The notes under the pieces were generated by a model that searched no databases, was not told the origin of the DNA, and saw only the letters and a list, made by a program, of their open reading frames with translations. From assembly GCF_004010195.1 (NCBI RefSeq), contig NC_057718.1, positions 70,033,789 to 70,072,556 of the forward strand: a stretch of 38,768 bases of DNA, read 5' to 3'. The translations under genes and the position numbers were made by a program. The DNA comes from Chiloscyllium plagiosum. Lineage: Eukaryota. The first letter of the stretch is position 1; every line of letters starts with the position of its first letter. Positions 5,676 to 35,900 of this stretch are shown one piece after another.

Positions 5676-5970
5676 ACAGACCTCCGAAGAGTATCCCACC
5701 CAAACCCATTCCCTATTACTCCACATTTACCCCTGACTAATGCATCTAATTTACACATCCCTGAACACTTTGGGCAATTTAGCCTGGCCAATTCACCTAA
5801 CCTGCACATTTTTGGATTATGGGAGGAAAACTGGTGCACCTGGAGGAAACCCACACAGAGACAAGGAGGATGTGCAAACTCCACACAGACAGTCCCGCAA
5901 GGCTGGAATCGAGACCGCGACCCTGGCACTGAGAGGCAGCAGTGCTAACCACAGAGCCACTGTACCGCCC
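5676..5970 (-). mobile_element. HE1-type V-SINE
   Basis: Minus 5' end GGGCGGTACAGTGGCTCTGTGGTTAGCACTGCTGCCTC (A box), GGTCTCGATTCC (B box), V-domain CTGTGTGGAGTTTGCAC..GTGGGTTTCCTCC. Confidence 0.92.
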
Positions 5971-6165
5971 CACATGTCTGGACTGAGGATTAGCTCCCAC
6001 TAGTTTCCAACATGGCCATTTTGTTGAAAAAAAAATGTGCAATGTGTTTGTCTCTCAGGCAGCTAGTACATTCTATTATTACTGACAAGCATAACATGCA
6101 CTCTGTCTGCCCTAAAGAGCTTATCAAAATGCCAATACTGAAATGTCAATGCACTCACCCACAGG

Positions 6166-6315
6166 GTTAAAAATCACACAACATCAGGTTATAGTCCAAC
6201 AGGTTTAATTAGAAGCACACTACTTGTGCTTCCAATTAAACCTGTTGGACTATAACCTGATGTTGTGTAACTTTTAACTTTGTACACCCCAGTCCAACAC
6301 CAGCATCTCTAAATC
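6166..6315. mobile_element. Fold-back mini-element (Penelope-derived), 54-bp arms, 13-bp flanking direct repeat
   Basis: 6166-6219 is the reverse complement of 6225-6278 (3 mismatches); CTCACCCACAGGG at 6154-6166 and 6316-6328; same family as 9134-9353. Confidence 0.85.
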
Positions 6316-6676: not shown

Positions 6677-6929
6677 TCATGGGCGGTTGACAAATGCCAG
6701 GTGCCAATGTATGTAGTTAAAGGATTCATGCGGCTGGTGCACTAGCTGTAAGCTGGCGCAGACCAAGCAGTGAGCTGAAGTCAGCAAATGCCCAAAGATT
6801 TCAGTGTTCAGTTCTATTTTTCATTGTTGTAGTGATTGGGACCAGGTTAACCTCAGCCTATGAGGCTGTTAATTGGGATTGCTAACCTAGGGCAATCAGG
6901 AAAGCCCTGGCAGAAACAGCTTATAACCA

Positions 6930-7625
6930 TGAAAAAACATTCTCCTCTGCTTTTGCTTACATTTCAGCCCCATACTCCTGATCTTTGGGCACCCAGTGTG
7001 GAGGGGGAGGGCATGTCAGAGGATGTCCTTGTGGGTTTGCTCCTGGGCCTGGCCAAACTGGTCATAAACAAGTCCAGGCAGCAGGCCATGGAGGGGGTGG
7101 TTATGCCTGCCCCTTTTCCTGGGTTATGTTTGAGCCCAGGTGTCCTTGGAGAAGGAGCATGCAATGTCTACCAACACCCTCAAGGTTTTCAGGGGGAGGT
7201 ATGCAGGGAGTGGAGTGCTTTATTCCTCCTCCAACTCTATTTTGATTTAATCCCTGCCCTCCCCTCCACTTTTTTGATCACACAGGATTGCCCTTTGATG
7301 TGAAGGGCACTGCTGTCACTGGCCGCTCAGGTGTTTCCTTTCTTCCTGGTGGTGGAATATAAATAAAGATTTATACACTCGTGTCACAGTGTCCGACACC
7401 TGCACACACATGACGTGGGTGCTGGGGCACTGCTGTCACTGGCCGCTCAGGTGTTTCCTTTCTTCCTGGTGGTGGAATATAAATAAAGATTTATACACTC
7501 GTTATTCTTCACAGTGTCCGACACCTGCACACACATGACGTGGGTGCTGGGGAAAAATAAGCATTACTGCTATTGGGCGATAGTGTGGGGGAAAATAGAA
7601 AACAATTTACAAAAAGAAAAAAATT
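6930..7625 (+). mobile_element. L1/Tx1-like LINE 3' fragment with 3' UTR and A-rich tail
   Basis: Frameshifted FSPILLIFGHPV..SEDVLVGLLLGLAKLVINKSRQ resembles L1/Tx1 ORF2 C-termini; AATAAA in the UTR; A-rich tail ~7592-7623. Confidence 0.7.
7305..7552 (+). repeat. ~120-bp near-identical tandem duplication in the Tx1-like 3' UTR
   Basis: GGGCACTGCTGTCACTGGCCGCTCAGG..GTGGGTGCTGG occurs at ~7305 and ~7425. Confidence 0.92.
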
Positions 7626-7820
7626 AGATAACCACAGAAGTGATGAGGTAGGGAAAATTACAAACGACTGACCATCTGGCTGGTTTAGTACTTCTAGTGG
7701 CACTAAAGAGCTTGCATGTCTCAAGATCAGCCAGGAAAAGACTACAGGAACCTTAATAATCAAATGTCTATGAATGAAGATGTCAAGGACCTATGCACAG
7801 TCCAATCAAATCAACCATTG

Positions 7821-8105
7821 GATTAGATTACTTACAGTGTGGAAACAGGTCCTTCGGACCAACAAGTCCACACCAACCCGCCGAAGCGCAACCCACACAG
7901 ACCCGTTCTCCTACATTTACCCCTTCACCTAACACTACAGGCAATTTAGCTTGGCCAATTCACCTAACCTGCACCCGGAGTAAACCCAAGCAGACACGGG
8001 GAGAACGTGCAAACTCCACACAGTCAGTCGCCTGAGGCGGGAATTGTACCCCGGTCTCTGGCGCAGTGAGGCAGCAGTGCTAACCACTGTGCCATCGTGC
8101 CTCCC
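7821..8105 (-). mobile_element. HE1-type V-SINE with internal deletion and HER1-like tail
   Basis: A box GTGGCACAGTGGTTAGCAC, V-domain, and tail ACAGTGTGGAAACAGGTCCTTCGG similar to HER1 at 3462. Confidence 0.92.
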
Positions 8106-8200
8106 ACATGTAGAGTGCCATTTTATTAGGTCTCTTGGCATACACAGTAACTGATTTTTGTTTTGATGTGCAAATAAACATTTGAAATCTAAAAAAAAAT

Positions 8201-8529
8201 GGTTTTCAGGGAGAGGTGGGCTCCATGGAGTGTGGAGTATTTTCTTTCCCTGCTATTCTATTTTGATTTAGTCCCTTCCCTCCCCTTCACCTTTTTGCTC
8301 ACGCAGCGTTGCCTTTGATGAGAAGGGCACTCCTTGTCACTGGCCACTCAGGTGTTTCGTTTCTTCCTGGTGGTGGAATATGAATAAAGATTTCTGCACT
8401 CGTTGTTCTTCACTGTGTTCCACACCTTCACACACGTGATGTAGGTGCTGGGAAATAAAAGCACTACTGCTATTTGATAGAACTGTTGGGGGTTTATGAA
8501 AAAGAAAGAAAAAAACAGGAGAGAAAAAA
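8201..8529 (+). mobile_element. Tx1-like 3' UTR copy 2 with A-rich tail
   Basis: Aligns with 7183-7620 (GGTTTTCAGGG.., TTCTTCCTGGTGGTGGAATA..AATAAAGATTT). Confidence 0.8.
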
Positions 8530-8542
8530 TATAACTGTGATA

Positions 8543-8847
8543 AGTTTTCAAGGAGAGGCAGTCATTGTAGGGCATGGAGTGCTTTATTTTCCCCTCCGAT
8601 TCTATTTTGATTTAATCCCTACCCTCCCCTTCACTTTTCTGTTCACTTAGGCATTGTCCTTGATGAGAAGGGCACTGCTTTTCACTGGCCACTTGGGTGT
8701 TTCTCTCTTCCTGGTGGTGGATTATGAATAAAGCTTTCTACACTCAATGTTTTTTCACTGTGTCCTACACTGACGCACACATGATGTGGGTGCTGGGGAG
8801 AAATAAGCACCACTGCTGTTTGGCAATAGTGTGGGAAGAAAAAAATA
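8543..8847 (+). mobile_element. Tx1-like 3' UTR copy 3 with A tail
   Basis: Aligns with copies 1 and 2 and starts at about the same point (GTTTTCAAGGGAGAGG). Confidence 0.8.
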
Positions 8848-9133
8848 TATGACCACAAGACTAGAAGCTCCGCAGTTCAGGCGACTAACTCCAAGCTGGC
8901 TGACATAGTGATATTGTCGGTTCTTTATTATTCTTTTGTGGGGAAGTGGCTCATGAGCTGGCTGGCCAGACCCAGTGATACTGTAGGTTATTTTCTTTGT
9001 AAAAATGAAAAGAAAGAATGAAAAACAAGAAAGAAAAACAAAAATATAACCAGGAGAGTGGAATCTCCTCATTTCAGGTGACTGAATCCGAGCTGGCTGA
9101 CCACAGCTAGTGTACTATGCACAAGTAAATAAA

Positions 9134-9353
9134 GTTAAAAATCACACAACACCAGGTTATAGTCCAACAGGTGTATTTGGAAGCACTAGCTTTTGGAGTG
9201 CTGCTCTTTCATCAGGTGATTGTGACACCCACCTGGTGAAAGGGCAGCGCTCTGAAAGCCAGTGCTTCCAAATAAGCCTTGTTGGACTATAACCTGGTGT
9301 TATGTGTTTTTTAACTTTGTCCACCTCAGTCCAACACCTGGTCCTCCAAATCG
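9134..9353. mobile_element. Fold-back Penelope-derived mini-element inserted at the LTR AATAAA, with two inverted degenerate hammerhead motifs
   Basis: Arms 9134-9218 and 9230-9315; CAAGTAAATAAAG at 9122-9134 and 9354-9366; CTGGTGA..GAAA on +, CTGATGA..AAAA on -. Confidence 0.85.
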
Positions 9354-9492
9354 CAAGTAAATAAAGGGTGACTTGGTGATGAGCCCCAGGCCTCTGTGCA
9401 GTTATTTCAGTGGCAACAGGAGAAAACCGGATGAAACAAGAACATTCACTGGCAACTGTCATCTTGGAGTTGGGGTAAGCATTGCTGATATC

Positions 9493-9990
9493 ATGCCTTT
9501 ATTTGGGAAGTTTGACTCATTTGATCCTACCGTCAACGATTGGGCCCAGTATGTCAAAAGAATGTGTTATTTTTTTCCAGGCAAACGACATTGGGGCAGA
9601 TGAAAAGCAACGAGTGATTCTTCTGATGGCTTGTGGACCCATAGCATTTTCAGTGATAAGGGGCTTTCGTTTCCAAGAGGCACCAGATACTAAAACCTTC
9701 CAAGAGTTGATAGAGTTGGTTAAGGAATAATACAACCTAAATCTCCTCTAATTCTGAGAAGCTATCAGTTTTATTCAGCTGTTAGAGAACCATAGAAATC
9801 TATATCAGGATTTTTTATGAGGCTGGCAGAGGCATATGATATTGTGTTAATACTGAATGAGATACTGACAGTCCATTTGGTATAGGGGATTAATGACGTA
9901 ACCATAGAGAAGGTCTATTAGCTGAAGCCTAACTGCACTTTGAATAGGCAATACAACTGGCTTTGTCTTTAGAACATTCAGCAGGTGGAG
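9493..9990 (+). pseudogene. Gypsy gag remnant
   Basis: MPLFGKFDSFDPTVNDWAQYVKRMCYFF / QANDIGADEKQRVILLMACG..APDTKTFQELIELVKE, with a frameshift and stops. Confidence 0.8.
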
Positions 9991-10367
9991 CTGGGAACTA
10001 TAGAGCATCTCGATGGAAATGGACATTCTCGCTTGTCTGATTGAGCTCAGGTATCACCACCTGAGAGTAAGCAATTGCAGAGCTCACACAGGGCATGTTC
10101 TGAGCAGAGAGACCCTAGGCAAACCAATACCAGATGCCCACGACAAAGGCAAACCTCTGCCAAGTGGCTAAAAGGTTCTACAGGATCTGGGCCAGCAAGC
10201 CATTGTAGTTGGTGCTGGTATGGAATTCGAGACAGCAAAGGAGTCGTTCAAGGGCTGACTTGAGTAAGAAAACCCATAAGCCAGTACCCAGGAGAGTGCA
10301 CACCCTGGAAAGTCCCTCTACATGTGGGTTCGAGCAATTAAATTGCTTGGTGACATCCAAGTAGGCA

Positions 10368-10625
10368 CCGATTAAAATTAATGTTTGGTTAAATGGTCAC
10401 CCAGTTCTCATTGAGATGTATACCAGGACAGCTGTATCTCTGGTTGCAGAATCTGTCTTTAACAAGATTCACTCAGGACTCCAATCCTTAAGTTTGTACA
10501 TGACCTCAGCCAGACTGAGAACATACACTGGGGAACTGTTGCAGATTAAGAGTATGACTTTGCTTCTGGTGTCCTATGAGAAGCAGTTGGTAGTAAAAGG
10601 TTTGGGTCCAAGTCTATTATTGGAA
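10368..10625 (+). pseudogene. Gypsy aspartic protease remnant
   Basis: PIKINVWLNGHPVLIEMYTRTAVSLV (decayed DTGAxxS) and LRTYTGELLQIK..GPSLL. Confidence 0.75.
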
Positions 10626-10628
10626 AAT

Positions 10629-12448
10629 GGCAGCATCAAAGGAGAAGGAGAATCAATGTTTCAGGCATAAGCCCTTCTTCAGGAATGAGGAGGGTGTGCC
10701 AAGCAGGCTAAGATAAAAGGTAGGGAGGAGGGACTTGGGGGAGGGACGTTGGGAATGCGATAGGTGGAAGGAGGTTAAGGTGAGGTGATAGGCCGGGAGA
10801 GGNNNNNNNNNNNNNNNNNNNNNNNNNNNNNNNNNNNNNNNNNNNNNNNNNNNNNNNNNNNNNNNNNNNNNNNNNNNNNNNNNNNNNNNNNNNNNNNNNN
10901 NNNNNNNNNNNNNNNNNNNNNNNNNNNNNNNNNNNNNNNNNNNNNNNNNNNNNNNNNNNNNNNNNNNNNNNNNNNNNNNNNNNNNNNNNNNNNNNNNNNN
11001 NNNNNNNNNNNNNNNNNNNNNNNNNNNNNNNNNNNNNNNNNNNNNNNNNNNNNNNNNNNNNNNNNNNNNNNNNNNNNNNNNNNNNNNNNNNNNNNNNNNN
11101 NNNNNNNNNNNNNNNNNNNNNNNNNNNNNNNNNNNNNNNNNNNNNNNNNNNNNNNNNNNNNNNNNNNNNNNNNNNNNNNNNNNNNNNNNNNNNNNNNNNN
11201 NNNNNNNNNNNNNNNNNNNNNNNNNNNNNNNNNNNNNNNNNNNNNNNNNNNNNNNNNNNNNNNNNNNNNNNNNNNNNNNNNNNNNNNNNNNNNNNNNNNN
11301 NNNNNNNNNNNNNNNNNNNNNNNNNNNNNNNNNNNNNNNNNNNNNNNNNNNNNNNNNNNNNNNNNNNNNNNNNNNNNNNNNNNNNNNNNNNNNNNNNNNN
11401 NNNNNNNNNNNNNNNNNNNNNNNNNNNNNNNNNNNNNNNNNNNNNNNNNNNNNNNNNNNNNNNNNNNNNNNNNNNNNNNNNNNNNNNNNNNNNNNNNNNN
11501 NNNNNNNNNNNNNNNGTTGCAGGGGAAGGTGCCGGGAGTGGAGGTTGGGTTGGTGGGGAGTGTGGACCTCACGAGGGAGTCACGGAGGGAGTGGTCTTTC
11601 CTGAACGCTGATAGGGGTGGGGAGGGAAATATATCCTTGGTGGTGGGGTCCGTTTGGAGGTAGCGGGAATGACGAAGGATGATCCGATGTATCTGGAGGT
11701 TGGTGGGGTGGTAGGTGAGGACTAGTGGGGTTCTGTCCTGGTGGCGATTGGAGGGGCGGGGTTCAAGGGCGGAGGAGTGGGAAGTGGAGGAGATGCAGTG
11801 AAGAGCATCGTCAACATCTGAGGGGAAATTGCAGTCTTTGAAGGAGGAGGTCATCTGGGTTGTTCGGTATTGGAATTGGTCCCCCTGGGAGCAGATGCGG
11901 CAAAGGTGAAGGAATTGGGAATATGGGATGGCGTTTTTACAGGGGGCAAGGTGGAAAGAGGTGTAATCTAGGTAGCTGTGGGAGTCAGTCGGTTTATAGT
12001 AAACGTCCGTGTTGAGTTGTCCGTCCGAGATAGAGATGGAAAGGTCTAGGAAGGGGAGGGAGGAGTCTGCGATGGTCCAGGTAAATTTGAGGTCGGGGTG
12101 GAAGGTGTTAGTAAAGTGGATGAACTGTTCAACCTCCTCGTGGGAGCACGAGGTAGCACCGATACAGTCATCAATGTAGCGGAGGAAAAGGTGAGGTGTG
12201 GTGCCAGTGTAGCTGCGGAAGATGTACTGTTCCACATATACAACGAAGAGGCAGGCATAGCTAGGGCTCATGCGGGTGCCCATGGTTACTCCTTTGGTTT
12301 GGAGGAAGTGGGAGGATTGGAAAAAGTTGTTAAGAGTGAGGACCAGTTCAGTCAGTCGAAGGAGGGTGTCAGTGGAAGGGTACTGGTTGGTTCGGTGGGA
12401 AAGGAAGAAGCGGAGCGTTTTGAGGCCTTCGTGATGTGGAATGGGGAG
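10629..12448 (-). mobile_element. Penelope-like element (RT, gap, 3' end with hammerhead motif)
   Basis: MGTRMSPSYACLF..RYIDD..LPFLDL..VYYKPTDSHSYL..KNAIPYSQF are PLE RT motifs; the 3' end carries CTGAAGA-AGGGCTTATGCCT-GAAA. Confidence 0.92.
10655..10686 (-). ncRNA. Minimal hammerhead ribozyme motif in the Penelope terminus
   Basis: CTGAAGA (10682-10676), short stem II, GAAAC (10662-10658); PLE-associated minimal hammerheads are established. Confidence 0.6.
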
Positions 12449-12454
12449 TTCGAT

Positions 12455-12639
12455 GGTCCTGCCCCACCGAACTCATTTCTGCATACCTTGACACAGTCCT
12501 GTCCCCCTTAGTCCAAGAACTCCCCACCTACGTTTGGGATACCACGCATGCCCTCCACCTCCGCCATGATTTTCGCTTCCCCGGCCCCCAACGCCTTATC
12601 TTCACCATGGATATCCAGTCCCTATACATCTCCATCCCC
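12455..12639 (+). mobile_element. Inverted 5' segment of the same Penelope RT
   Basis: SCPTELISAYLDTVLSPLVQELPTYVWDTTHAL..IFTMDIQSLYISIP is the segment directly preceding IPHHEG, which starts the minus-strand part. Confidence 0.88.
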
Positions 12640-13660
12640 TCAGAACAACCAGAAGGCCTGTTGGAAACCATAGCTTCTCCCCCTCCATCCAGTGTTGAGG
12701 AAACCTCAGAGTCCGAGATGGATGCAGCCTTGGTACCATTACCACCAGAAGAAGAGGAGGAAACGCTCCCAAGACACAATGATGCAAGAAATAGGCTACA
12801 ATCTGGTACATGCTGCCCGTGTCAGAGTCCGGATCAGAGGAACCGGACTTGGGGTGAAAACATCACAGGAAACAACATAAGCGAATGACCAGGCCTACAT
12901 CCCTGGACTACGAGGGGTGGCGCAGGGATGTGGTGATTGGAACAGGTTGACCTCATTGACTACCAGATCGTTGATTCAGGTTGTTAACCTGGTTCAATCA
13001 AGAGAGCTCAATCATGTCAGCCCATTGGCTGACCAATGTAACCAGAGATTAGAATTTCCTCAGTTGTGGACTGACTATAAGCTGGCAGCCACAGCCAGTG
13101 TGTTATTGTTGTTTTTTGGTAACTGATTCCTGAACTGGCTGGCCACACAGCCAGTTTGATACTGTAATTCTTTTTTGTGGACTGATTTCTGAGCTGGCTG
13201 ATCTACATAGGCAGTGTATTCTGTTACTTTTTAGTTTTCATTATGGAACTGTTGTTTTGTTCTTTCATTGGCTGTTTGCAGTCTGTGTGTTACCCTCTCT
13301 GTTTTTTGCACAAGGACTATGCTGATTTCGTGGCAGGGCTTGGCTCCTGCATTATAGATTTTAGTATTTGCACTTTCTTTTTGCATGTGTTTTCATGTTT
13401 TTGTGTTTGGATTGAGCATCTGTGAGTCAACTGCACCTTTACAAATAAACTCTATCTCTGTGAGTGGGCCTGGGCCCCCTGGATGAACCCGGCCTCTGTA
13501 GAGACTGAGCCCCTGTGTGTGCTGCCTTGGGGTGTGGACTCAGCTTTTTTTGATGGTCAGTTTTATCACCTGCATTGTGTCTTGTGCGTCCCTGGGTCTG
13601 GTAGGCCTTACTGTGAGCCAGAAGGTTTTAGGTCATCCCAAAAGCTGTCACACAGAGTTT

Positions 13661-13860
13661 GATAGTAGGTAGGCCGTCCCAGGAACCGGATGGTCAGTAC
13701 GTCACCCCTGAAAGCCTGAAGTTGGGGAGGCCAACTCGATACTGGCTGACCTGAGAGTCGGATGGTGAGTAGGCTGTCCCATGAACTGGATGGTCAGTAG
13801 GCTGCCCCAAGAGCCTGAAGGTGGGGAGGCCATCCTGAGTGCCATTGTCCCAGGGCACTC
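13661..13860 (+). repeat. Diverged ~100-bp dimer built from GGATGGTCAGTAGGCTG subunits
   Basis: 13661 and 13761 align (GAT.GT..GTAGGC.GTCCCA.GAAC.GGATGGTCAGTA..GCCTGAAG.TGGGGAGGCCA). Confidence 0.7.
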
Positions 13861-15820
13861 AGGATGGGCTATCCGAGAGGTGATCAGAAGGTGTGTTAAG
13901 ATGGACTAAGCTAGATGGGCCATGGGGTGGACTGAGAGCTGGAAGGGGCATTGGGGCAGGCTGCCTTTGAGTGGCTGGAAGGTGGGAGGGGTAGGTCACT
14001 TGCTGGTTTACTGGGGTGTCTGTGTAATATGTACTGTTTTATTCAGTTGATCGGACTGTTTTGCATGTGTTTGTGTCTACTGTTTCCTCTTTGGTAAGTC
14101 AAGGTGGGATTTGGGATTCGTCCACACTTCCCTGTGAATTAGCTATACTTTGGTGTTTGGCTTTACCACCCCCTTTCCCCTGCAAATTGCTGCTTATTAT
14201 AAATGGCTGCTTATTGTTCATTGTTGACTGTTTGTTTGTGTTTTTTTTGTACAGTTGAATTTTTTAAAAAAACCCAGGAGATTAGAATCTCCTCAGTTGA
14301 GGATTAACCTTGAGCTAACTGGCCACAACCAGTGTGTTGTTGTTCTGTTTTGAGGACTGATTTCTAAGCTGGTTCACCATACAGTCAGTGTACACTGTTC
14401 TTTGTTTTCGTTGGGGAACTGTTGTTTTTTTAATTCACTTGCTGGTTGCAGTCTGTGTTACACTTTTTGTTTGCTTTTTTTTGAGCAAGGTCAATGGTGA
14501 TATTGTGGCAGGGTGTGGCCCTTGCACTGTGGTTTTTAGTATTTGCACTTTAGTTTTGCAAAAAAAAAATAACCAGGAGATTAGAATTTCCTCAGTTCGG
14601 GTGACTGACTCCAAGCTGGCTTGGCCACAGCCAGTGTCCTTTGCACATGTAAATAAAGGTTAACTCAGTGACAGGATACCAGCCTCTATGCAGTTATTTC
14701 AGAAACCAAAAACTACTGGAGAATACTGAAACTTGCTGTAATGTATAAAGAGAACAGAACAGTACCCCAGCTGAGATGTAGATGATTGAGTCCAGTCACA
14801 AGCAGACTGATAAGGACAAAAGCTGGAACCTTAAGCTGTGAATAGGCAAAGATATGGTTGCTGTTTCCATTATTTAAAGATAATGGAAGGTCATCTAGAG
14901 CAACATAGGCAGAGTGGAGCAGGCCCTGTGGGTGTGTGATATTTTTGATGCTGATTGCATGCTTCTATTAGCTGGGAATAAGGCTGTATCCTCTAAGAGA
15001 AGCTGAAATTCTTTGAGGAACTATGAAGGACTTCATGACTGTAAAAAAACAATATAACCAGGAGATTAGAATTTCCTCCGTTCAGGTGAGTGATTGAGTT
15101 GGCCTGTGCACATGTAAATAAAAAGTGACTTGGTGATGCAGTTCTTTCAATCATGTTTGGTAAAGTAGAAAGTTGAATGTTAATGCCTCAACTCACTTCA
15201 TTAATAAGGCATTTAACAAGTAATAATCCCACTTAATTATCAACTTGCTGCTGCCTGGTGAAAATCTTACCATGCCACTTGGGAAAAGCATAAAAGATGG
15301 AGCGAAATGTTCCCAGTGTTGAGAGGGGCCTCACTGGACTCATCTGATTCTGCCATAAATCTCATTATAGCCAACATCACTTAGAACCTTGAGATTCCAT
15401 CCAAAATGTTAGTTGTAAAAGTTTAAGCTATCTGCAGCCTTGTTCTCTCCTCTGTTTATTTCAAACACTGTTCTTGATGACATTGTTCTACTGCCTCCTC
15501 AATTCAAACTGTCTACCTTTCACTTCATCTTGGCCAAAATGACATTCCACCCTTTCATTTATTTTCCTCTCCTTCACTTTGTTCCTTTTGCACTCACTCT
15601 CATTTCCTTTCTCATATCTCTATTATTGCTTCTGTTCCCCTTTTCTTTCTCCTCCATCTGCACCCACTACCAGCATTCCTTTGAGTTGATTCCTCAAATC
15701 TGATTGTGATATCACCTATTAAATGTTACAAAGTAGGTAGGTCACACACTTCAAACAATCTTTTTTTATTGTACTGGAGGTAAATGCTAAATTAACTTCA
15801 GTACTTTGAGGTAAGCTTTT

Positions 15821-16235
15821 GAGTCATAGGATGTACAGCATGGAAACAGACCCTTCAGTCCAAGTCATCCATGCTGACCATATATCCTCAATAAATCTGG
15901 TCCCATTTGCCAGCACTTGGCCCATATCCCTCTAAACCCCTCCTTTTCATGGACCCATCCAAATGCCTTTTAAATATTGTAATTATACCAGCCTCCACCA
16001 TTTTGTCTGGCAGCTCATTTCATACATGTGAAAAAGTTGCCCCCAGGTCCTTTTTAAATTTCCCTCCCTCACCCTAAACTTGTGCCCTCTAGTTCTGAAC
16101 TGCCCTCAAACCAAGGAAAATATCTTGTCGATTTACTCTATCCATGCCCCTCATGATTTTATAAACCTATATAAGGTCACTCGTCAACCTCTGATGCTCC
16201 AAAACATTCCTAGCCTATTCAGCCTCTCCTTATAG
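15821..16235 (-). mobile_element. HER1/CR1 LINE 3' end
   Basis: Same tail and body as 3441-3748 (GAGTCATAG..GTACAGCATGGAAACAGACCCTTC). Confidence 0.9.
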
Positions 16236-19187: not shown

Positions 19188-21203
19188 GAACATAGAAAAA
19201 TATAGCGCAGTACAGGCCCTTTGGCCCTCTGTTGTGCCAATCCAAGCCCACCTAACCGACACTAGCCCACTATCCTCCATATGCCTATCCAATGCCTGCT
19301 TAAATGCCCATAAAGAGGGAGAGTCCACCACTGCTACTGGCAGGGCATTCCATGAACTCATGACTCGCTGAGTAAAGAACCTACCCCTAACATCTGTCCT
19401 ATACCTACCACCCCTTAATTTAAAGCTATGCCCCCGAATAGCTGACTCCATACGTGGAAAAAGATTCTCACTGTCGACCCTATCTAAACCCCTAATCATC
19501 TTATACACCTCAATCAAGTCACCCCTAAACCTTCTTTACACCATTGAAAACAACCCCAAGTGCCTCAGCCTGTCCTCATANNNNNNNNNNNNNNNNNNNN
19601 NNNNNNNNNNNNNNNNNNNNNNNNNNNNNNNNNNNNNNNNNNNNNNNNNNNNNNNNNNNNNNNNNNNNNNNNNNNNNNNNNNNNNNNNNNNNNNNNNNNN
19701 NNNNNNNNNNNNNNNNNNNNNNNNNNNNNNNNNNNNNNNNNNNNNNNNNNNNNNNNNNNNNNNNNNNNNNNNNNNNNNNNNNNNNNNNNNNNNNNNNNNN
19801 NNNNNNNNNNNNNNNNNNNNNNNNNNNNNNNNNNNNNNNNNNNNNNNNNNNNNNNNNNNNNNNNNNNNNNNNNNNNNNNNNNNNNNNNNNNNNNNNNNNN
19901 NNNNNNNNNNNNNNNNNNNNNNNNNNNNNNNNNNNNNNNNNNNNNNNNNNNNNNNNNNNNNNNNNNNNNNNNNNNNNNNNNNNNNNNNNNNNNNNNNNNN
20001 NNNNNNNNNNNNNNNNNNNNNNNNNNNNNNNNNNNNNNNNNNNNNNNNNNNNNNNNNNNNNNNNNNNNNNNNNNNNNNNNNNNNNNNNNNNNNNNNNNNN
20101 NNNNNNNNNNNNNNNNNNNNNNNNNNNNNNNNNNNNNNNNNNNNNNNNNNNNNNNNNNNNNNNNNNNNNNNNNNNNNNNNNNNNNNNNNNNNNNNNNNNN
20201 NNNNNNNNNNNNNNNNNNNNNNNNNNNNNNNNNNNNNNNNNNNNNNNNNNNNNNNNNNNNNNNNNNNNNNNNNNNNNNNNNNNNNNNNNNNNNNNNNNNN
20301 NNNNNNNNNNNNNNNNNNNNNNNNNNNNNNNNNTCCTGTAGACAACGAGGATATAAAAATCAAGGCCAATGGCTCTGCAATCTCCTCCCTTGCTTCCCCG
20401 AGAATCCTAGGATAAATGCCATCAGGCCCAGGGGACTTATCTATTTTCACTCTTTCCAGAATTTCCAACACCTCTTCCCTACATACCTCAAAGCTGTCCA
20501 TTCTAATTAATTGTAACTCAGTATTAACATTGGCAACAATGTCCTGTTCCTGAGTGAATACTGACGAAAAGTATTCATTCAGTGTCTCCCCAATCTCTTC
20601 AGCCTCCACACGCAACTTTCCATTACTAACCTTGACTGGACCTATTCCTACCCTAGTCATTCTTTTATTCCTGACATGCCTGCAGAAAGCCTTAGGGTTT
20701 TCCCTAATCCTACCAACTAAGGACTTTTCATGTCCCCTCCTTGCTGCTCTTAGCTCTCTCTTCAGATCCTTCCTGGCTACCTTATAACTCTCCATCGCCC
20801 CAATTGAACCTTCACGCCTCATCTTTGGGCCGCCCTCTTCCCTTTAACAAGGGATACCACTTCCTTATTAAACCACGACCCTTTCCTCCCTGCCTGACAG
20901 GTACATACTTATCAAGGACACTCAATAGTTGCTCCTTGAACAAGTTCCACATATCAATTGCGCCCTTCCCTTGAAGCCTACTTTTCCAAACCACGCATCC
21001 TAAGTTGTGCCTCACCGCATCATTATTTCCCTGCCCCCAGTATAACTCTTGCCCTGCAGTGCACACTTATCCCTCTCCATCACTAGAGTAAAAGTCACCG
21101 AATTGTGGTTACTGTCCCCAAAGTGCTCACCTACCTCCAATTCTAACACCTGGCCTGGTTCGTTACCCAGAACCAAATCCAGTATGGCCTCACCTCTTGT
21201 TGG
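19188..21203 (-). mobile_element. Younger CR1 LINE nested in the old one (contains gap)
   Basis: PTRGEAILDLVL..GDSNHN (APE), KSPGPDGIYPRIL, GHSFKL..WNALP; GAACATAG tail at 19188. Confidence 0.93.
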
Positions 21204-21625
21204 AGGTGAAGAAAGTGGAGTTTGCAAGAATGGATCCAGGAATGATAAACTTAAATTATGGAGATAGATTTGAGGAGTTTTCCTTGCAGACGAGAAGGCG
21301 ACGAGAAGGTTTGATTGAAGTTTTCAAAATCATGAGCAGTCTCGACACAGTAAACATTGAGAGACTGGTCTTGCTCATCAATCAAGAATGGGAGGGCACG
21401 GATTTAAAATGATTTACAAAAGAAGCAATTGTGACGTTAGTGTCTTTATGAAGAAAGTGGTTTGGTTCTGGAATGCACTGCCAGCAAAACATTCAAGAGG
21501 ACTGAAGTGGTTATTTAAATAGAAATAACATGCAGGTCGTGGAAAACAGGTTGGAGGATGGTACTTATTCATGATGCCAACTCAGAGCTGGTGCCAAATG
21601 GCCTTGTTCTCTATTATAACAATTC
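21204..21625 (+). mobile_element. Old CR1 LINE, right part (3' end)
   Basis: FARMDPGM..YGDRFE..LIEVFKIM, WNALP; continues the element interrupted at 19185. Confidence 0.8.
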
Positions 21626-23134: not shown

Positions 23135-25880
23135 CCTTTTAGAATACCCAACACTACTATTCTCCTAATGCCAACTTTACCTAGAGTAATCAGACATCTA
23201 TCCCTAAGCTCAACATCCACCATGCTCCTCTCCTCTGTGAATATCGATGCAAAGTACTCATTAAGAATCTCGCCCATTTTCTCTGACTCTACGCATGACA
23301 TTCCTCCTTTGCCCTTGAGTGGGCCAACCCTTTCTCTGGTGACCCACTTGTGGCTTATAAACAAATAAAAGGATTTGGGATTTTTCTTTACCCTGTTCAC
23401 TAATGATAATTCTTGACCCCTTTTAGCCTCCTTAATTCCTCACTTCAGATTGGTCCTACATTCCCGATTATTCTTCCAAAGCTTTGTCTTTTATCAGTCA
23501 CCTAGACCTTGTGTATGCTTCCTTTTTCCTCTTAGCTAGTCTCTCAATTTCACCTAATCTTGCCATTTCTAGTCCTCATTTTCACAGGGACATATATGTC
23601 CTGCACTTTAATCAACCACTCTTTAAAAGCCTCCCACATATCAATATGGATTTATCCTCAAACAGCTGCTCCCAATCCACATTCCCCAGCTCCTGCCGAA
23701 TTTTGCTATAGTTGGTCTTTCCCAATTTAGCACTCATCTTTTAGGGCCACTCTTGTCTTTGTCTATGATTATCTTAAAAACTTATGGAATTGTGATCACT
23801 ATTTCCAAAGTAATCGCCTACTGAAACCTCAAGCGCTAGGCCGGGCTCATTCCCCAACATCAAGTCCAGTATGACCACTTCCCAAGTTAGACTATTTACA
23901 TACTGCTCTTAGAAAACCTTCCTGGATGCTCCTTACGAATTCTGCTCCATCTAAACCTCTAAAGCTAAGTGAATCCCAGTCAATGTTGGGAAAATTAAAA
24001 TCTCCCATCACCACTACCCTGTTGCTCCTACATCTTTCCATAGTCTGGCTAACATACTAGTATCTCTATCTGACGCTCGCTGTTGGGAGGCCTGCAGTAC
24101 TGCTCCAACATTGTTACTGCACTCTTCCTATTTCTGAGTTCTGCCCATATTGCCTCACTGCTCAAGTCCTCCATTGTGCCCTCCTTCAGCACAGTTGAGA
24201 TACCTTCTCTGAACCGCAATATAACTTCTCAACCCCTTTTACCACCTCTTCTATCCTGCCTGAAGCATGTATAACCTGGGGTATTTAGTTGCCAATCAAC
24301 CCTTCCGTCAAACAAGTCTCAGTAATAGCAATACCATCATACTCCCAGTTACTAATCCAAGTCCCAGGTTCATCAGCCTTACCTACTATACTTCTTGCAT
24401 TAAAACAAATATACCTCAGAGCACCAGTCCCTCTGCGTTCATCATTGGCTCCCTGCTGACTCTTACCCTTAGTCACACTGACTTCTTCATCTAGTTCCTT
24501 AAGGCTTTAGTTACTACCTCCTTACTGTCCACTAACCACCTAGTTTGATTCCCATATCCTTGCCACATTACTTTAAACCCTGCCCAGCAGCATTAACAAA
24601 AGCATCCCCAAGGACATTGGTTCCAGTCTGGCCCAGATGTAGACCATCCAAATTGTAATAGTCCCACCTCCCCAGAGCCAGTCCCAATGTCCCAAAAGTC
24701 TGAAACCCTCCCTCCTACACCATCTCTCAAGCCAAGCATTCATCCTGCCTATTCTATTGTTCATACTCTGATTAACATGTGGCACTGGTGAACAATCCTG
24801 AGATTACTATCTCCTGAAGTCCTACTTTTTAACTTGGCTCCTAACTCCCTAAATTCTGCTTGTAGGCCTCATCCCGTTTATTGCCTATATAAATTGGTGC
24901 CGAGATGCCCCCAAATAAACCTAGTGTTGCGTGATTTTTAACTTTGTCCATCACTGGTACCTCCACATTATGTATGCACCACGACAGCGGGCAGTTCACC
25001 CTACCCCTTTAGAATGTCCTGCAGCCAATGTGAGACATTCCTGATTGGCGCATCTGGGAGACAACATACCATCCAAGAGTCTCGTTTTCAACCACAGAAC
25101 CGCCTATCTACTCCTCTTACAATTGAATCCCCTGTGAGTATAGCCCTTCCACTTTTTTTTTAAACCCACTCTTCTGAACAGCAGAGTCAGCCACAGTGCC
25201 ATGAACGTAGCTACTGCTGTCTTCTCCTGGTGAGCCATCTCTGCCAACATTATCCAAAATGGTATACTTGCTTTGGAGGATGATGACCACAGGGGACACC
25301 TGCATTGCCTTCCTGCTCTTTCTCTGCCTTTTGGTCACCCATTCCCTTTCTCCTTCAGCAATCCTAATCTGCAGTGTGACCAATTTGCTAAATATACTAA
25401 CCACAACAGCATCACAGATACTTCAAAGTGAGTCTATCTGCAGCTCTGGAGCCATCATGCAGTCTAACAAGAGCTGCAGCTGAAGGAGTCAGGGACATCA
25501 TCCACATCCCTGAGCTACCACATTGTGCAAGAGGAGCATAACACGAGTCTGGGACCTCCTGCCATTTTTACTCTTAAACTTAGTCCAACTATAATATAAA
25601 ATAATAGATAAATGAAATTTTTAAAATTACCAATCACACTACTTACCAGCATATGATAAAAACCAGAAAGAAAAGCCTTTCCTTATTAACACACCACAGA
25701 GTCTCTTTCTTTTAGTGTCTCAGGTTTAGCCACTGCCCAAATATATCCATTCACTCACCTTCCCAGAGTGCAATTCGACTGCTCCCACTCAGCTCCTCAC
25801 TCTCACCGCTGCTGCTGCAAAATGATTCCATGAGGTAAGTGTGTAAACTGGAAATTTACCTTCCCGGCAGCCCCATTGTC
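23135..25880 (-). mobile_element. CR1 LINE 5' half: 5' UTR, ORF1 (zinc finger and esterase), ORF2 APE
   Basis: ATG at 25565 MAGGPRLVLCSSCTMW..FSCSSC; MNAWLERWCRREGFRLLGHWD (SGNH-like); CFNARSI (APE start); NPKSFY..LNEYFASIFT. 5' boundary approximate. Confidence 0.88.
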
Positions 25881-25904
25881 CTGGCTTTCACTGTTCCTAA
25901 AAAA

Positions 25905-26688
25905 CGTCCTGTCCAACTGCAACACAACTTCCCAACTTCTATATTCAATAGCCTGGCTGATGAAGGCTAGTGCACCAAAAGCCTTCTTCACTGCTCTGTC
26001 TACCTGTGACTCCATTTTCAGAGAAATGTGCACCTGAATTCCAAGGTCCCTCTTTTCCACTACACTCCTTAAGATCCTACCATTCACCATAAAACTCCTA
26101 CCTTGATTTGACTTTCCAAAATGCAGGCCCTCACACTTATCTATTTAAACTCCATTTGCCATTTCTCAGCCCACTTGCCCAAGTGATCAAGGTCCTGCTG
26201 CAATTTCTGATAACCTTCCTCACTGTCCGCAATACCGCCTGTTCTAGTCATTTGCAGACTTACTAATCATGCCTTGTACGTTCTCATCTAAATCATTTCT
26301 ATAGATGATAAACAGCAATGGCCCAGCATCGACCCCTGAGGCACTCCAAAAGTCACAGGCCTCCAATCCGACAAGCATCCTTCCACTATTACTCTCTGCT
26401 TCCTACCATCAAGCCAATTATGTATCCAATTTGCCAGTTCCCCTCAGTTCCATGCAATCTAACCTTCCAGAGCAGCCTTCCATGTGAAGCCTTATCAAAG
26501 GCCTTACCGAATCCATATAGACTACATTTATCACCCTGTCTTTGTCAACCTTCCTGGTCAGTTCATGATCTCCCATGCACAAAGCCATGCTGACTATTCC
26601 TAATCAAACTCTCTTTCCAAATGCATGTATATTATATTTCTCAATCTTCTCAAGTAACTTAACTACCAAAAGATGTTAGGCTTAATCA
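25905..26688 (-). mobile_element. CR1 RT fragment
   Basis: Starts at SLTS; includes EKRDLGIQVH..VKKAFGALAFI..IEYRSWEV. Confidence 0.88.
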
Positions 26689-27561
26689 GTGCATTCAGGA
26701 AAGTTTCATTAAGCAGTACATTTGGGAAGGGGGAAAATTTGACCTAATCTTGGGAGAAAGGGCTAAACAGTTGTCTGAGATGGCAGTGCAGGAGCACTTT
26801 AGGACCAGTGACCATAGCTCTATTAATTTCAAAGTAGTTATGGACAGGGACAAAACTAGTCAACAGGTTCAAGTTCTAAATTGGGGTAAGACAAATTTTG
26901 ATAGAATTAGACAGGAGCTTGTAGGGGTTGATTGGAGCAGTTTGATTGCAGGCAAAGGAAGATCTGGCAAATGGGATGCCTTTAAAAGTGAGCTAACTAG
27001 AGTTCAAGGTCTATATGTTCCTGTGAGGGTGAAGGGCAAGGTTGACAGGAATACAAAACTCTGGATAACAAGGGATATTGAGGCTCTGACCAGAAAAAAG
27101 GAGGAGGTATGGCTCAGGTACAGGCAGCTGGGATCAAGGGAATCCCTGGTGGTACATAGGGGATCCATGAGTTTACTGAAGAAGCAAAGTAGGAGGGCAA
27201 AAATGGAGCACGAGATAGACTTGGCTGAGAAGATTAGGGTGAATCCAAAGTGTTCTTTAAATATATTAAAGGAAAAAGAATAACGAGAGAAACCATAGGA
27301 CCTCTTAAGGACCTAAGTGGACAGGCGATGGACGAGGTCCTCAATGAATATTTCTCCTCTGTGTTTACTGTAGAGAAAGACGTGAAGACTTGGGGACCAT
27401 ATATCCAAGAACACTGCAAGACACTACAGAAGAAATTGCGTGGGCCCTGGCTGATGTTTTTGCATCATCGTTAGCCACCAGTGAGCTCCCAGAGACTGGA
27501 GGGTAGCAATTGTTATGCCCTCATTCAAGAAGGGCTGCAAAGAAAAACCTAGGAACTATCG
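26689..27561 (+). mobile_element. CR1 APE-to-RT fragment, inverted relative to its neighbour
   Basis: HFRTSDH, NWGKTNFD, LNEYFSSVFT, PRDWRVA..KPRNYR. Confidence 0.88.
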
Positions 27562-32877: not shown

Positions 32878-32925
32878 TCTAGGAATTCCCTGGCTGTTCT
32901 CTGTTTGGCTTGTCCTATAATTGTT

Positions 32926-35900
32926 TGTCTGTTTGTCCGTCCGTCCGTCCATCCAATACTGACCGACCACCCATGCAATACCGACCGCCCAACCACCTGC
33001 CGTCCGCCCGCCCGTCCGTCCACCCGATACCGACCGACCGTCCGCCCGTCCATCCAATCCCGTCCGCCCGTCCATCCAATCCCGTCCATCCAATACCGAC
33101 CGCCCGTCCGCCCGTCCATCCAATCCCGTCCATCCACCCAATACCGACCGACCGACCGCCCGTCCATCCATCCAATACCGTCCGCCCGTCCATCCAATCC
33201 CGTCCATCCACCCAATACCGTCCGCCCGCCCGCCCAATAGCGACCGACCGTCCGCCCGCCCGCCCAATAGCGACCGACCGTCCGCCCGCCCAATACCAAC
33301 CGCCCGCCCAATACCGACCGCCCGTCCGCCCGTCCATCCAATCCTGTCCGCCATTCCGCCCGTCCATCCAATCCCGTCCGCACGTCCATCCGTCCATCCA
33401 ATACCATCCGCCCGTTCATCCAATACCGACCGCCCTTCCACCGGACCATCCAATACCGTCCATCCACCCAATACCGACCGCCCGTCCGTCCATCCAATAC
33501 CGTCCGCCTGTCCATCCAATACTGTCCATCCACCCAATACCGACCGCCCGACTGCCCGTCCATCCAATAGCGACCGCCCGTCCACCGGACCATCCAATAC
33601 CGTCCATCCACCCAATACCGACCNNNNNNNNNNNNNNNNNNNNNNNNNNNNNNNNNNNNNNNNNNNNNNNNNNNNNNNNNNNNNNNNNNNNNNNNNNNNN
33701 NNNNNNNNNNNNNNNNNNNNNNNNNNNNNNNNNNNNNNNNNNNNNNNNNNNNNNNNNNNNNNNNNNNNNNNNNNNNNNNNNNNNNNNNNNNNNNNNNNNN
33801 NNNNNNNNNNNNNNNNNNNNNNNNNNNNNNNNNNNNNNNNNNNNNNNNNNNNNNNNNNNNNNNNNNNNNNNNNNNNNNNNNNNNNNNNNNNNNNNNNNNN
33901 NNNNNNNNNNNNNNNNNNNNNNNNNNNNNNNNNNNNNNNNNNNNNNNNNNNNNNNNNNNNNNNNNNNNNNNNNNNNNNNNNNNNNNNNNNNNNNNNNNNN
34001 NNNNNNNNNNNNNNNNNNNNNNNNNNNNNNNNNNNNNNNNNNNNNNNNNNNNNNNNNNNNNNNNNNNNNNNNNNNNNNNNNNNNNNNNNNNNNNNNNNNN
34101 NNNNNNNNNNNNNNNNNNNNNNNNNNNNNNNNNNNNNNNNNNNNNNNNNNNNNNNNNNNNNNNNNNNNNNNNNNNNNNNNNNNNNNNNNNNNNNNNNNNN
34201 NNNNNNNNNNNNNNNNNNNNNNNNNNNNNNNNNNNNNNNNNNNNNNNNNNNNNNNNNNNNNNNNNNNNNNNNNNNNNNNNNNNNNNNNNNNNNNNNNNNN
34301 NNNNNNNNNNNNNNNNNNNNNNNNNNNNNNNNNNNNNNNNNNNNNNNNNNNNNNNNNNNNNNNNNNNNNNNNNNNNNNNNNNNNNNNNNNNNNNNNNNNN
34401 NNNNNNNNNNNNNNNNNNNNNNNNNNNNNNNNNNNNNNNNNNNNNNNNNNNNNNNNNNNNNNNNNNNNNNNNNNNCCATCCAATACCGACCGCCCATCCA
34501 ATGCCGACCGACCGCCCGCCCAACGCCGTCCGTCCGCCCAACGCCGACCACCCGTCCAACGCCGACCACCCGTCCAACGCCCATCCAATGCCGACCGCCC
34601 ATCCAATGCCGACCGCCCATCCAATGCCGACCGCCCATCCATCCAATGCCGACCGCCCGTCCATCCACCCATCCAATACCGACCGACCACCCATCCAATG
34701 CCGTCTGGCCAATACCGACCGACCACCCATCCAATGCCGTCTGGCCGCCCAATGCTGACCGCCTGTCCAACGCCGTCCATCCGCCCACCCAATGCTGACC
34801 GCTCATCCAATACCGACCATCCATCCATCCAATACCGACCGCCCATCCAATACCGACCGCCCATCCAATACCAACCATCCATCCATCCGCCCATCCAATA
34901 CCGACCGTCCATCCATCCGCCCATCCAATACCGACCGTCCATCCATCCGCCCATCCAATACCGACCGTCGATCCATCCAATACCGACCGTCGATCCATCC
35001 ATCACCGACCGTCCATCCATCCATCACCGACCGTCCATCCATCACCGACCGTCCATCCATCCATCCAATGCCGACCGCCCATCCAATGCCGACCGTCCAT
35101 ATATCCAATGCCGACCGCCCATCCAATACCGACCGTCCGTCCATCTACCCATCCAATACCGACCGCCCGTCCAACGCCGTCCGTCCGCCCGCCCAATGCC
35201 GACGACCCGTCCAACGCCATCCATCCATCCAATACCGACCGCCCATCCAAAACCGACCGCCCATCCATCCATCCAATACCGACCGCCCATCCATCCACCC
35301 ATCCAATACCGACCGCCCATCCAATCCCGACCCCCCTACCGTCCAACCAATACCGACCGCCCATCCAAAACCGACCGCCCATCCATCCATCCAATACCGA
35401 CCGCCCATCCAAAACCGACCGCCCATCCATCCATCCAATACCGACCGCCCATCCAAAACCGACCGCCCATCCATCCATCCAATACCGACCGCCCATCCAN
35501 NNNNNNNNNNNNNNNNNNNNNNNNNNNNNNNNNNNNNNNNNNNNNNNNNNNNNNNNNNNNNNNNNNNNNNNNNNNNNNNNNNNNNNNNNNNNNNNNNNNN
35601 NNNNNNNNNNNNNNNNNNNNNNNNNNNNNNNNNNNNNNNNNNNNNNNNNNNNNNNNNNNNNNNNNNNNNNNNNNNNNNNNNNNNNNNNNNNNNNNNNNNN
35701 NNNNNNNNNNNNNNNNNNNNNNNNNNNNNNNNNNNNNNNNNNNNNNNNNNNNNNNNNNNNNNNNNNNNNNNNNNNNNNNNNNNNNNNNNNNNNNNNNNNN
35801 NNNNNNNNNNNNNNNNNNNNNNNNNNNNNNNNNNNNNNNNNNNNNNNNNNNNNNNNNNNNNNNNNNNNNNNNNNNNNNNNNNNNNNNNNNNNNNNNNNNN

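Follow-up and report, generated by a model that had tools for sequence, protein, structure and literature searches.

A retrotransposon broken at one site in both LTRs

The window, by which we mean the whole 38,768-nucleotide stretch of Chiloscyllium plagiosum DNA that was analysed, is repeat-rich vertebrate DNA, and all of the DNA evidence presented here comes from this one locus. Part of the stretch is contained in 20 public runs, and no RNA runs were found among those listed. The window holds a decayed LTR retrotransposon in which both LTRs are interrupted at the same site by A-tailed sequences, with different contents in the two LTRs. The features of the element and its inserts are as follows.

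6828–6929, plus strand: left part of the 5' LTR, which starts with TG and is closed by the first copy of the target, TATAACCA (6922–6929)
6930–7626, plus strand: unit 1, a 5'-truncated L1/Tx1-type LINE with an A-rich tail; frameshifted ORF2 C-terminus with its stop at 7248–7250
7627–7634, plus strand: target relic GATAACCA, 7/8 matches
7635–8199, plus strand: unit 2, a polyadenylated sequence of about 270 nt without its SINE; AATAAA is followed 18 nt later by an A9 tail
about 7816–8111, minus strand: SINE inserted into unit 2, 77–91% identical to a copy at 5764–5977
8200–8529, plus strand: unit 3, a short LINE 3' end adjoining the unit 2 tail; 242/283 identical to unit 1
8530–8544, plus strand: target relic TATAACT with a degenerate continuation
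8545–8847, plus strand: unit 4, a short LINE 3' end; 233/286 identical to unit 3 and 239/284 to unit 1
8848–9044, plus strand: unit 5, LTR-headed; its head, about 57 nt of the LTR right half counted from the target, is followed by a monomer, then by a T-rich stretch and an A-rich tail of 45 nt
9045–9409, plus strand: right part of the 5' LTR, with the full target TATAACCAGGAG, AATAAA at 9128 and a TTTCA end
about 9131–9352: palindromic element interrupting the right part of the 5' LTR and duplicating about 14 bp
9411–12928, plus strand: decayed internal region with broken gag-like frames; purine-rich tract at its 3' end
10630–12470, minus strand: RT-bearing element inserted in the host interior
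12929–13044, plus strand: left part of the 3' LTR, ending in target copy TGTAACCA (13037–13044)
13045–14272, plus strand: unit A, LTR-headed, with 59-nt monomers, a T-rich body and an A7 tail; no recognisable ORF
14273–14569, plus strand: unit B, same family as unit A, with an A10 tail after about 300 nt
14570–15052, plus strand: candidate unit C, made up of an entire LTR right half (to 14701) followed by 348 nt of unrelated sequence, with an A7 tail
15053–15149, plus strand: LTR right half behind the A7 tail, 84/96 identical to the 5' LTR, then ATCAT

The downstream part of the target site reads ACCAGGAG.

The host element has direct LTRs of the TG...CA form, a primer-site-like start, a purine tract and a degenerate target site duplication (TSD), as LTR retrotransposons do. 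It is likely Gypsy-like, a label taken from layout rather than from domain order. The left part of the 5' LTR is identical to 12929–13044 at 75/101 positions (shuffle z 10.1, 0/1000 shuffles), a match that is invisible to BLASTN alone, and the LTR pair is about 81% identical overall (159/197). A weak match of P0023 to the left end of the LTR was left out of the evidence. The internal region starts with TGG, which resembles a primer-binding site as judged by eye, without tRNA matching. After the gag-like frames there is a retropepsin-like stretch (10365–10619), and Atlas features matched the Asp_protease_2 and gag-asp_proteas clusters at 0.95, which we use as a lead only. The gag and protease pieces gave no match in Pfam, and a PDB search with the protease piece returned nothing meaningful. 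No RT or integrase of the host element's own was recognised in the stretches scanned. The minus-strand insert at 10630–12470, which has a weak RVT_1 match (E 7e-4) and is cut through by an N gap, is one that we take to be probably Penelope-like.

The LTR right half at 15053–15149 is the probable true end of the host element. The 5' flank, ATTGT, pairs with the ATCAT that follows 15149 at 3/5 positions plus a TG/CA swap, a pattern of CpG decay. A TSD-like pair of this quality is expected by chance in 1.9% of cases, and the flank of the other right half, at 14568, does not match.

Several further repeats were seen in the window. Palindromic elements with a degenerate hammerhead-like core occur at 9131–9352, inserted at the AATAAA of the LTR, and also at 6161–6315 and 24918–24950. 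We presume this element to be probably Penelope-derived; an Rfam search with it gave only sub-threshold matches to miRNA hairpins. From 32900 to 38768 runs a long degenerate satellite of CCAT/CCGT units with periods of 18, 22, 40 and 44 nt and N gaps inside. Many decayed LINE fragments on both strands, which we assume to be CR1-like, lie at 1–900, 15830–16200, 19200–21400, 23140–24450 and 25900–27560, and none is tied to the LTR site.

Stacked units and the sequence behind their tails

An earlier reading made from the letters of the DNA alone (the sequence-only reading) had described a head-to-tail array of about five same-strand, A-tailed units between the break of the 5' LTR at 6921 and its resumption at 9045. 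Our analysis confirmed that this array is real and well supported locally. The motifs were found where that reading had placed them, with TATAACC at 6922 and 9045, ATAACC at 7628, TATAACT at 8530, TGACCA at 8850, AATAAA at 8173 and A9 at 8191–8199. What that reading had missed is that the 3' LTR is broken at the homologous site (13037) by two, probably three, further A-tailed units.

To gauge the junctions, we scored the 8-mer right after each tail against the LTR half at 15053, which was left out for this purpose, and used 109 runs of A≥5 as controls. The 8-mers following units 1, 3, 4 and 5 scored 7, 6, 7 and 8 of 8, respectively; 0/109 controls reached 7 and 4/109 reached 6. This upholds the earlier statement that four units are followed by a copy or relic of the target, and its implication that no target copy follows unit 2 is likewise borne out (3/8). 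Units A and B had low 8-mer scores (2 and 3) because their tails merge with the start of the motif, and both are covered by a position-free test with 20-mers. In that test all 37 control runs of A≥6 scored below the junctions behind units 4, 5, A and B. The relics at 7628 and 8530 taken alone were within chance in the position-free test (6% and 18% of random positions), so they count only by their position next to a tail. We also observed that CAGGAGAG (8517–8524), lying between two A runs in the tail of unit 3 (8509–8529), resembles the second half of the target; by its sequence it may be a further relic or mark an extra insertion consisting of a tail only.

By BLASTN, all three LINE 3' ends and all three LTR-headed bodies in the 31,334 non-N bases of positions 1–32800 are at the target site. 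No LINE or LTR-headed copies were found elsewhere in 1–32800, and the 39 exact TTAAAA sites of the window are without copies. The idea that the inserts merely follow the generic TT/AAAA preference of L1, which the sequence-only reading had named as a possible refutation, does not hold, since the junctions read A-tail then TATAACC and the 39 TTAAAA sites are empty. A related explanation is that the site is a hot spot and not a destination, with a very abundant LINE of loose A/T-rich nicking preference for which the LTR site is one good substrate that each added A tail improves. The nick context is indeed A/T-rich (AATATAA), unit 3 sits against the unit 2 tail with no more than a short A-rich duplication, and weak preference is common: in the available text of PMC4494074, SINEU-1 and SINEU-2 are flanked by their target in only 23% and 13% of cases. 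However, the other A runs of the window are without the LINE or LTR-headed families, the break falls at the same position in both LTRs, and the site is not TTAAAA. We regard this explanation as unlikely.

The position of the target within the LTR is also of interest. The Pol II TATA box has the consensus TATAWAWR and lies about 30 nt before the start site. The match of TATAACCA to this consensus covers its first five bases only. In two LTR halves AATAAA lies 83–84 nt beyond the target, and an initiator-like A follows 26 nt on in one of the three halves; these spacings are plausible for a TATA box, and TATAACCA may be one. If so, insertions into the promoter of the LTR might have been kept by the host since they silence the retrotransposon, and the target is placed where a core promoter would be. 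A single insertion would be enough for this, though, and stacking needs no selection. Moreover, the element is decayed, and the LTR-headed units restore what follows the site instead of destroying it. The suggestion of an LTR-disabling trap as a host function found no support in any observation at the locus, and we give such a trap hardly any credence.

Identity of the LINE and of the LTR-headed units

The sequence-only reading had called three of the units Tx1-like 3' ends. Units 1, 3 and 4 are the 3' end of one LINE (BLASTN 80–87%), and this LINE is of L1/Tx1 type; the narrower Tx1 label rests on a C-terminal motif, and here we assume it. The ORF2 C-terminus of unit 1 matches P0003 over 6933–7217 (tblastn E 3e-12), and just upstream of the matched end P0003 has a zf-RVT domain (26 bits, cut-off 27.5). 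This domain belongs to the relative and is absent from the truncated copy in the window. P0014, a fragmentary whale-shark gene model, matches human L1 ORF2p including its N-terminus (whole-sequence E 2e-4). Because the ORF2 end matches P0003 with its zf-RVT domain and the relative P0014 matches human L1 ORF2p, we place the LINE of unit 1 in the L1 group. It has the traits of L1/Tx1-type elements, with an ORF2 that ends after zf-RVT (in P0003), a 3' UTR, a poly(A) tail, 5' truncation and a short TSD. The copies in the window are truncated, and neither the N-terminal apurinic-type endonuclease nor the RT of this LINE was found there.

Searches for relatives outside the window gave the following results. 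Full-length ORF2 relatives numbered 0/785 candidates, named Tx1 references were absent from the results, an Atlas search with the ORF2 fragment gave no usable match, and a PDB search with P0003 returned nothing meaningful. Pattern scans of metagenome and viral contigs for other DNA copies yielded 0 matches, and protein-based locus scans confirmed 0/554 and 0/34 candidate stretches. The protein relatives come from sharks, with 18 of the 19 matches looked up being whale-shark gene models and one further match coming from the epaulette shark. One whale-shark gene model, P0009, joins the 3' end of the host element and the start of its LTR (window 12718–12940, 53–71% identity) to the same ORF2 end, both parts being in the same orientation. 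This link is present in 1/20 protein matches and the gene model does not give the distance between the parts, so that P0009 provides weak cross-species support for the LINE in this LTR. As a side observation, the first ~60 residues of P0004, annotated as a shark pentraxin-like model, are the ORF2 end of this LINE; the LINE start of P0004 is probably a gene-model artefact.

We considered whether the array arose mostly at the DNA level, with one or two insertions multiplied by ancient tandem duplication or by unequal exchange between struck LTRs (unit 3 giving unit 4, and unit A giving unit B) and with two LTR subfamilies recombined at the 3' end. Local duplication did happen inside unit 1, where a 120-bp internal tandem duplication in the 3' UTR (7305–7552) is identical at 119/120 positions. 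By comparison, identity between LINE units is 85.5% for 1 and 3, 84.2% for 1 and 4, and 81.5% for 3 and 4. Neighbours are thus not each other's best match, and a recent duplication of the three LINE units, the alternative raised by the sequence-only reading, is disfavoured. The LTR pair itself is only ~81% identical, so identity alone leaves room for an old duplication. Units 3 and 4 start at almost the same point of the LINE (within ~3 nt), close to where ORF2 ends. This favours duplication and is not predicted by independent truncation. The shared start could also reflect a short non-autonomous family or a pause site. A hairpin behind this start is unsupported (z –3.4 in unit 3, but 0.3 and –0.2 in units 1 and 4). 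Further points in favour of DNA-level expansion are the derived changes common to units A and B and the uneven identity of the left and right halves of the LTR pair (p 0.02). Against it, similarity is lowest between units 3 and 4, units A and B agree at just 78–80% and have different end points and separate A tails, and the window contains no template for units 1, 2 and C. On balance we find this origin improbable.

Unit 2 differs from its neighbours in being unrelated to the LINE. The window holds no second copy of it except for a single 25-nt match (E 0.019), and its first part gave no Pfam match in three frames. The minus-strand SINE within it (7816–8111) is presumably HE1-like. HE1 is given as a SINE of sharks and rays in the available text of PMC3747384.

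Unit 5 had been read as LTR-derived. This is true of its head, which is identical to the local LTR right half at 43/55 positions, but the rest is a T-rich body that it has in common with two units of the 3' LTR. Unit 5 matches unit A at 90/118 positions and unit B at 81/112, and units B and A match each other at 93/120 and 125/156, which places all three in the same family. Units A and B have heads of ~65 nt of LTR right half, then 59-nt monomers, a T-rich body and an A tail of their own. Both heads carry a C-to-G change and a 2-nt deletion that are missing from all three LTR right halves; at least this stretch of the head must then have come in with the element and not from a local duplication of the target, provided that B is not an old copy of A. 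The heads of the LTR-headed units end before the AATAAA of the LTR. The three units have intact 5' ends and three different 3' stops, the reverse of LINE truncation, and such stops fit what is expected of transcripts polyadenylated at different places. Pfam gave no family for unit A. No match at E 0.01 was obtained in units A, B or C by tblastn with 22 relatives, so that this search gave no sign of their being the LINE's own 5' end. We also noted GC-rich imperfect repeats with a spacing of 28–100 nt in unit A (13654–13840) and a 44-nt palindrome at 13827–13870.

On sequence comparison, 14570–15052 is quite likely an imported unit C, consisting of the right half of another LTR with 348 nt of foreign flank. 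We read it in this way because the U5 of the 15053 half is nearer to that of the 5' LTR (24/26, versus 30/43 for the 14568 half) and because the ATCAT/ATTGT flank pair belongs to the 15053 half while the flank of the 14568 half is mismatched. The 348-nt flank has no copy in the window. Counter to this, the 75/101 identity of the 3' left half fits the 14568 half better (Fisher p 0.34 vs 0.02); the imported piece may extend further 5', or two LTR subfamilies may have recombined.

An insertion model and comparison with known targets

Together, these data lead us to favour, with reasonable confidence, a model in which an L1/Tx1-type LINE that prefers this site rebuilds the LTR target with each insertion and also copies LTR-headed and other non-LINE RNAs into it. 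The sequence-only reading of a site-specific LINE stands as far as repeated, same-orientation insertion at a single LTR site and restoration of the target are concerned, and it is extended by the 3' LTR having been struck at the same site with different contents. The specificity of the enzyme, the Tx1 clade, the order of events and the sources of the RNAs are what we infer from this anatomy and from the L1-type ORF2 end.

The steps proposed here follow established LINE biology. The target would be nicked just before TATAACCAGGAG, and target-primed reverse transcription would then start with priming on the poly(A) tail, with some 8–17 bp of target duplicated per insertion. An intact target would always be left before the LTR right half, and so the site could be struck again and inserts would stack head to tail. 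Unit 2 would be a polyadenylated RNA, presumably cellular, that was copied by the LINE machinery. Units 2 and 3 probably arose together by a single template switch, with the relics at 7627 and 8530 marking the limits of the event; this fits because AATAAA lies 18 nt before the tail of unit 2, which directly abuts unit 3. Units 4 and 5 might be one 3' transduction. Units 5, A, B and C would most simply be read-through transcripts of LINE copies in other struck LTRs, that is 3' transductions, or transcripts from the LTR promoter, and LTR-headed RNAs would join seamlessly by homology of their 5' end with the target. In all, the 5' LTR would record three to five events. Besides the shared start of units 3 and 4, the chance-level 20-mer scores of two relics, the ~81% identity of the LTR pair and the better fit of the 3' left half to the 14568 half, it counts against the model that it comes from one DNA locus and that 19/20 protein matches are without a link of the P0009 type.

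A more far-reaching possibility is that units 5, A and B belong to a non-coding retroposon family that propagates itself. Its LTR head, running from the target to just before the poly(A) signal, would rebuild the core promoter; transcription from the host LTR would avoid the LTR poly(A) signal, and the Tx1-type LINE would return the RNA to the same site, giving a closed loop of three elements. We put this forward as a tentative and rather doubtful idea. A literature search by title and the start of abstracts, whose scope left most subscription journals and Repbase Reports outside, found no LTR-headed, LTR-homing passenger in sharks and no shark case of LTR-targeted stacking.

L1 elements are known for 3' transduction, and the products of mammalian L1 land at loose TT/AAAA sites. 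By contrast, the inserts described here are at one LTR site. Transduction, together with template-switch chimeras of the U6/L1 type described in the available text of PMC4494074, would explain unit C and the junction of units 2 and 3. According to the same text (Kojima, 2015), the crocodilian elements Tx1-8_Crp and Tx1-4_AMi prefer LTR retrotransposons, and a family is considered target-specific when >20% of its flanks are one target sequence; within our window, 3/3 LINE ends are at the target. The LTR families and positions are unnamed in that text as available, whereas at our locus the target is a single position of a shark Gypsy-like LTR, where as many as five units are stacked. Likewise, Tx1L of Xenopus laevis inserts at a specific site of Tx1D, a non-autonomous piggyBac (cited in PMC4494074). 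This resembles our locus in that a LINE is at a specific site of another transposon, and differs in that the target is a DNA transposon and not an LTR. The suggestion that the LINE is a parasite of a parasite fits but is not new, having already been described for Tx1 elements.

There is also a resemblance to Tx1-Mar and its passengers SINEU-2 and SINEU-3, which share a Mariner target. As set out in the available text of PMC4494074, a TSD lies between tandem SINEU-3 copies, a target-like 5' extension is present in SINEU-2B, and transcription from the flank was proposed. Both systems have a LINE and non-autonomous passengers in tandem at one target within another transposon. Unlike theirs, where the target is Mariner and the heads are derived from U1/U2, the target here is an LTR and the heads are LTR-derived; an Rfam search of 8112–9500 and 12900–15200 gave no U1/U2 match and nothing at gathering score, so these units do not have the head of a SINEU. 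Tandem insertion has also been described for Utopia in U2 genes (PMC4640811, in the text available).

The targeting principle is already known from crocodilians and this locus is a new shark example of it; novelty is limited to the LTR-headed passengers and unit C, and no other part adds anything. With this example, a shark LTR site is added to the targets known for Tx1-type LINEs. Where a short target is regenerated and inserts stack up, the order of insertion is recorded and other RNAs are captured. An apurinic-type endonuclease that chooses a site of 12–17 bp could help in work on the evolution of specificity. Should the LTR-headed units prove to be a real family, Kojima's proposal that targeted passengers take their promoter from the target could be tested on them directly.
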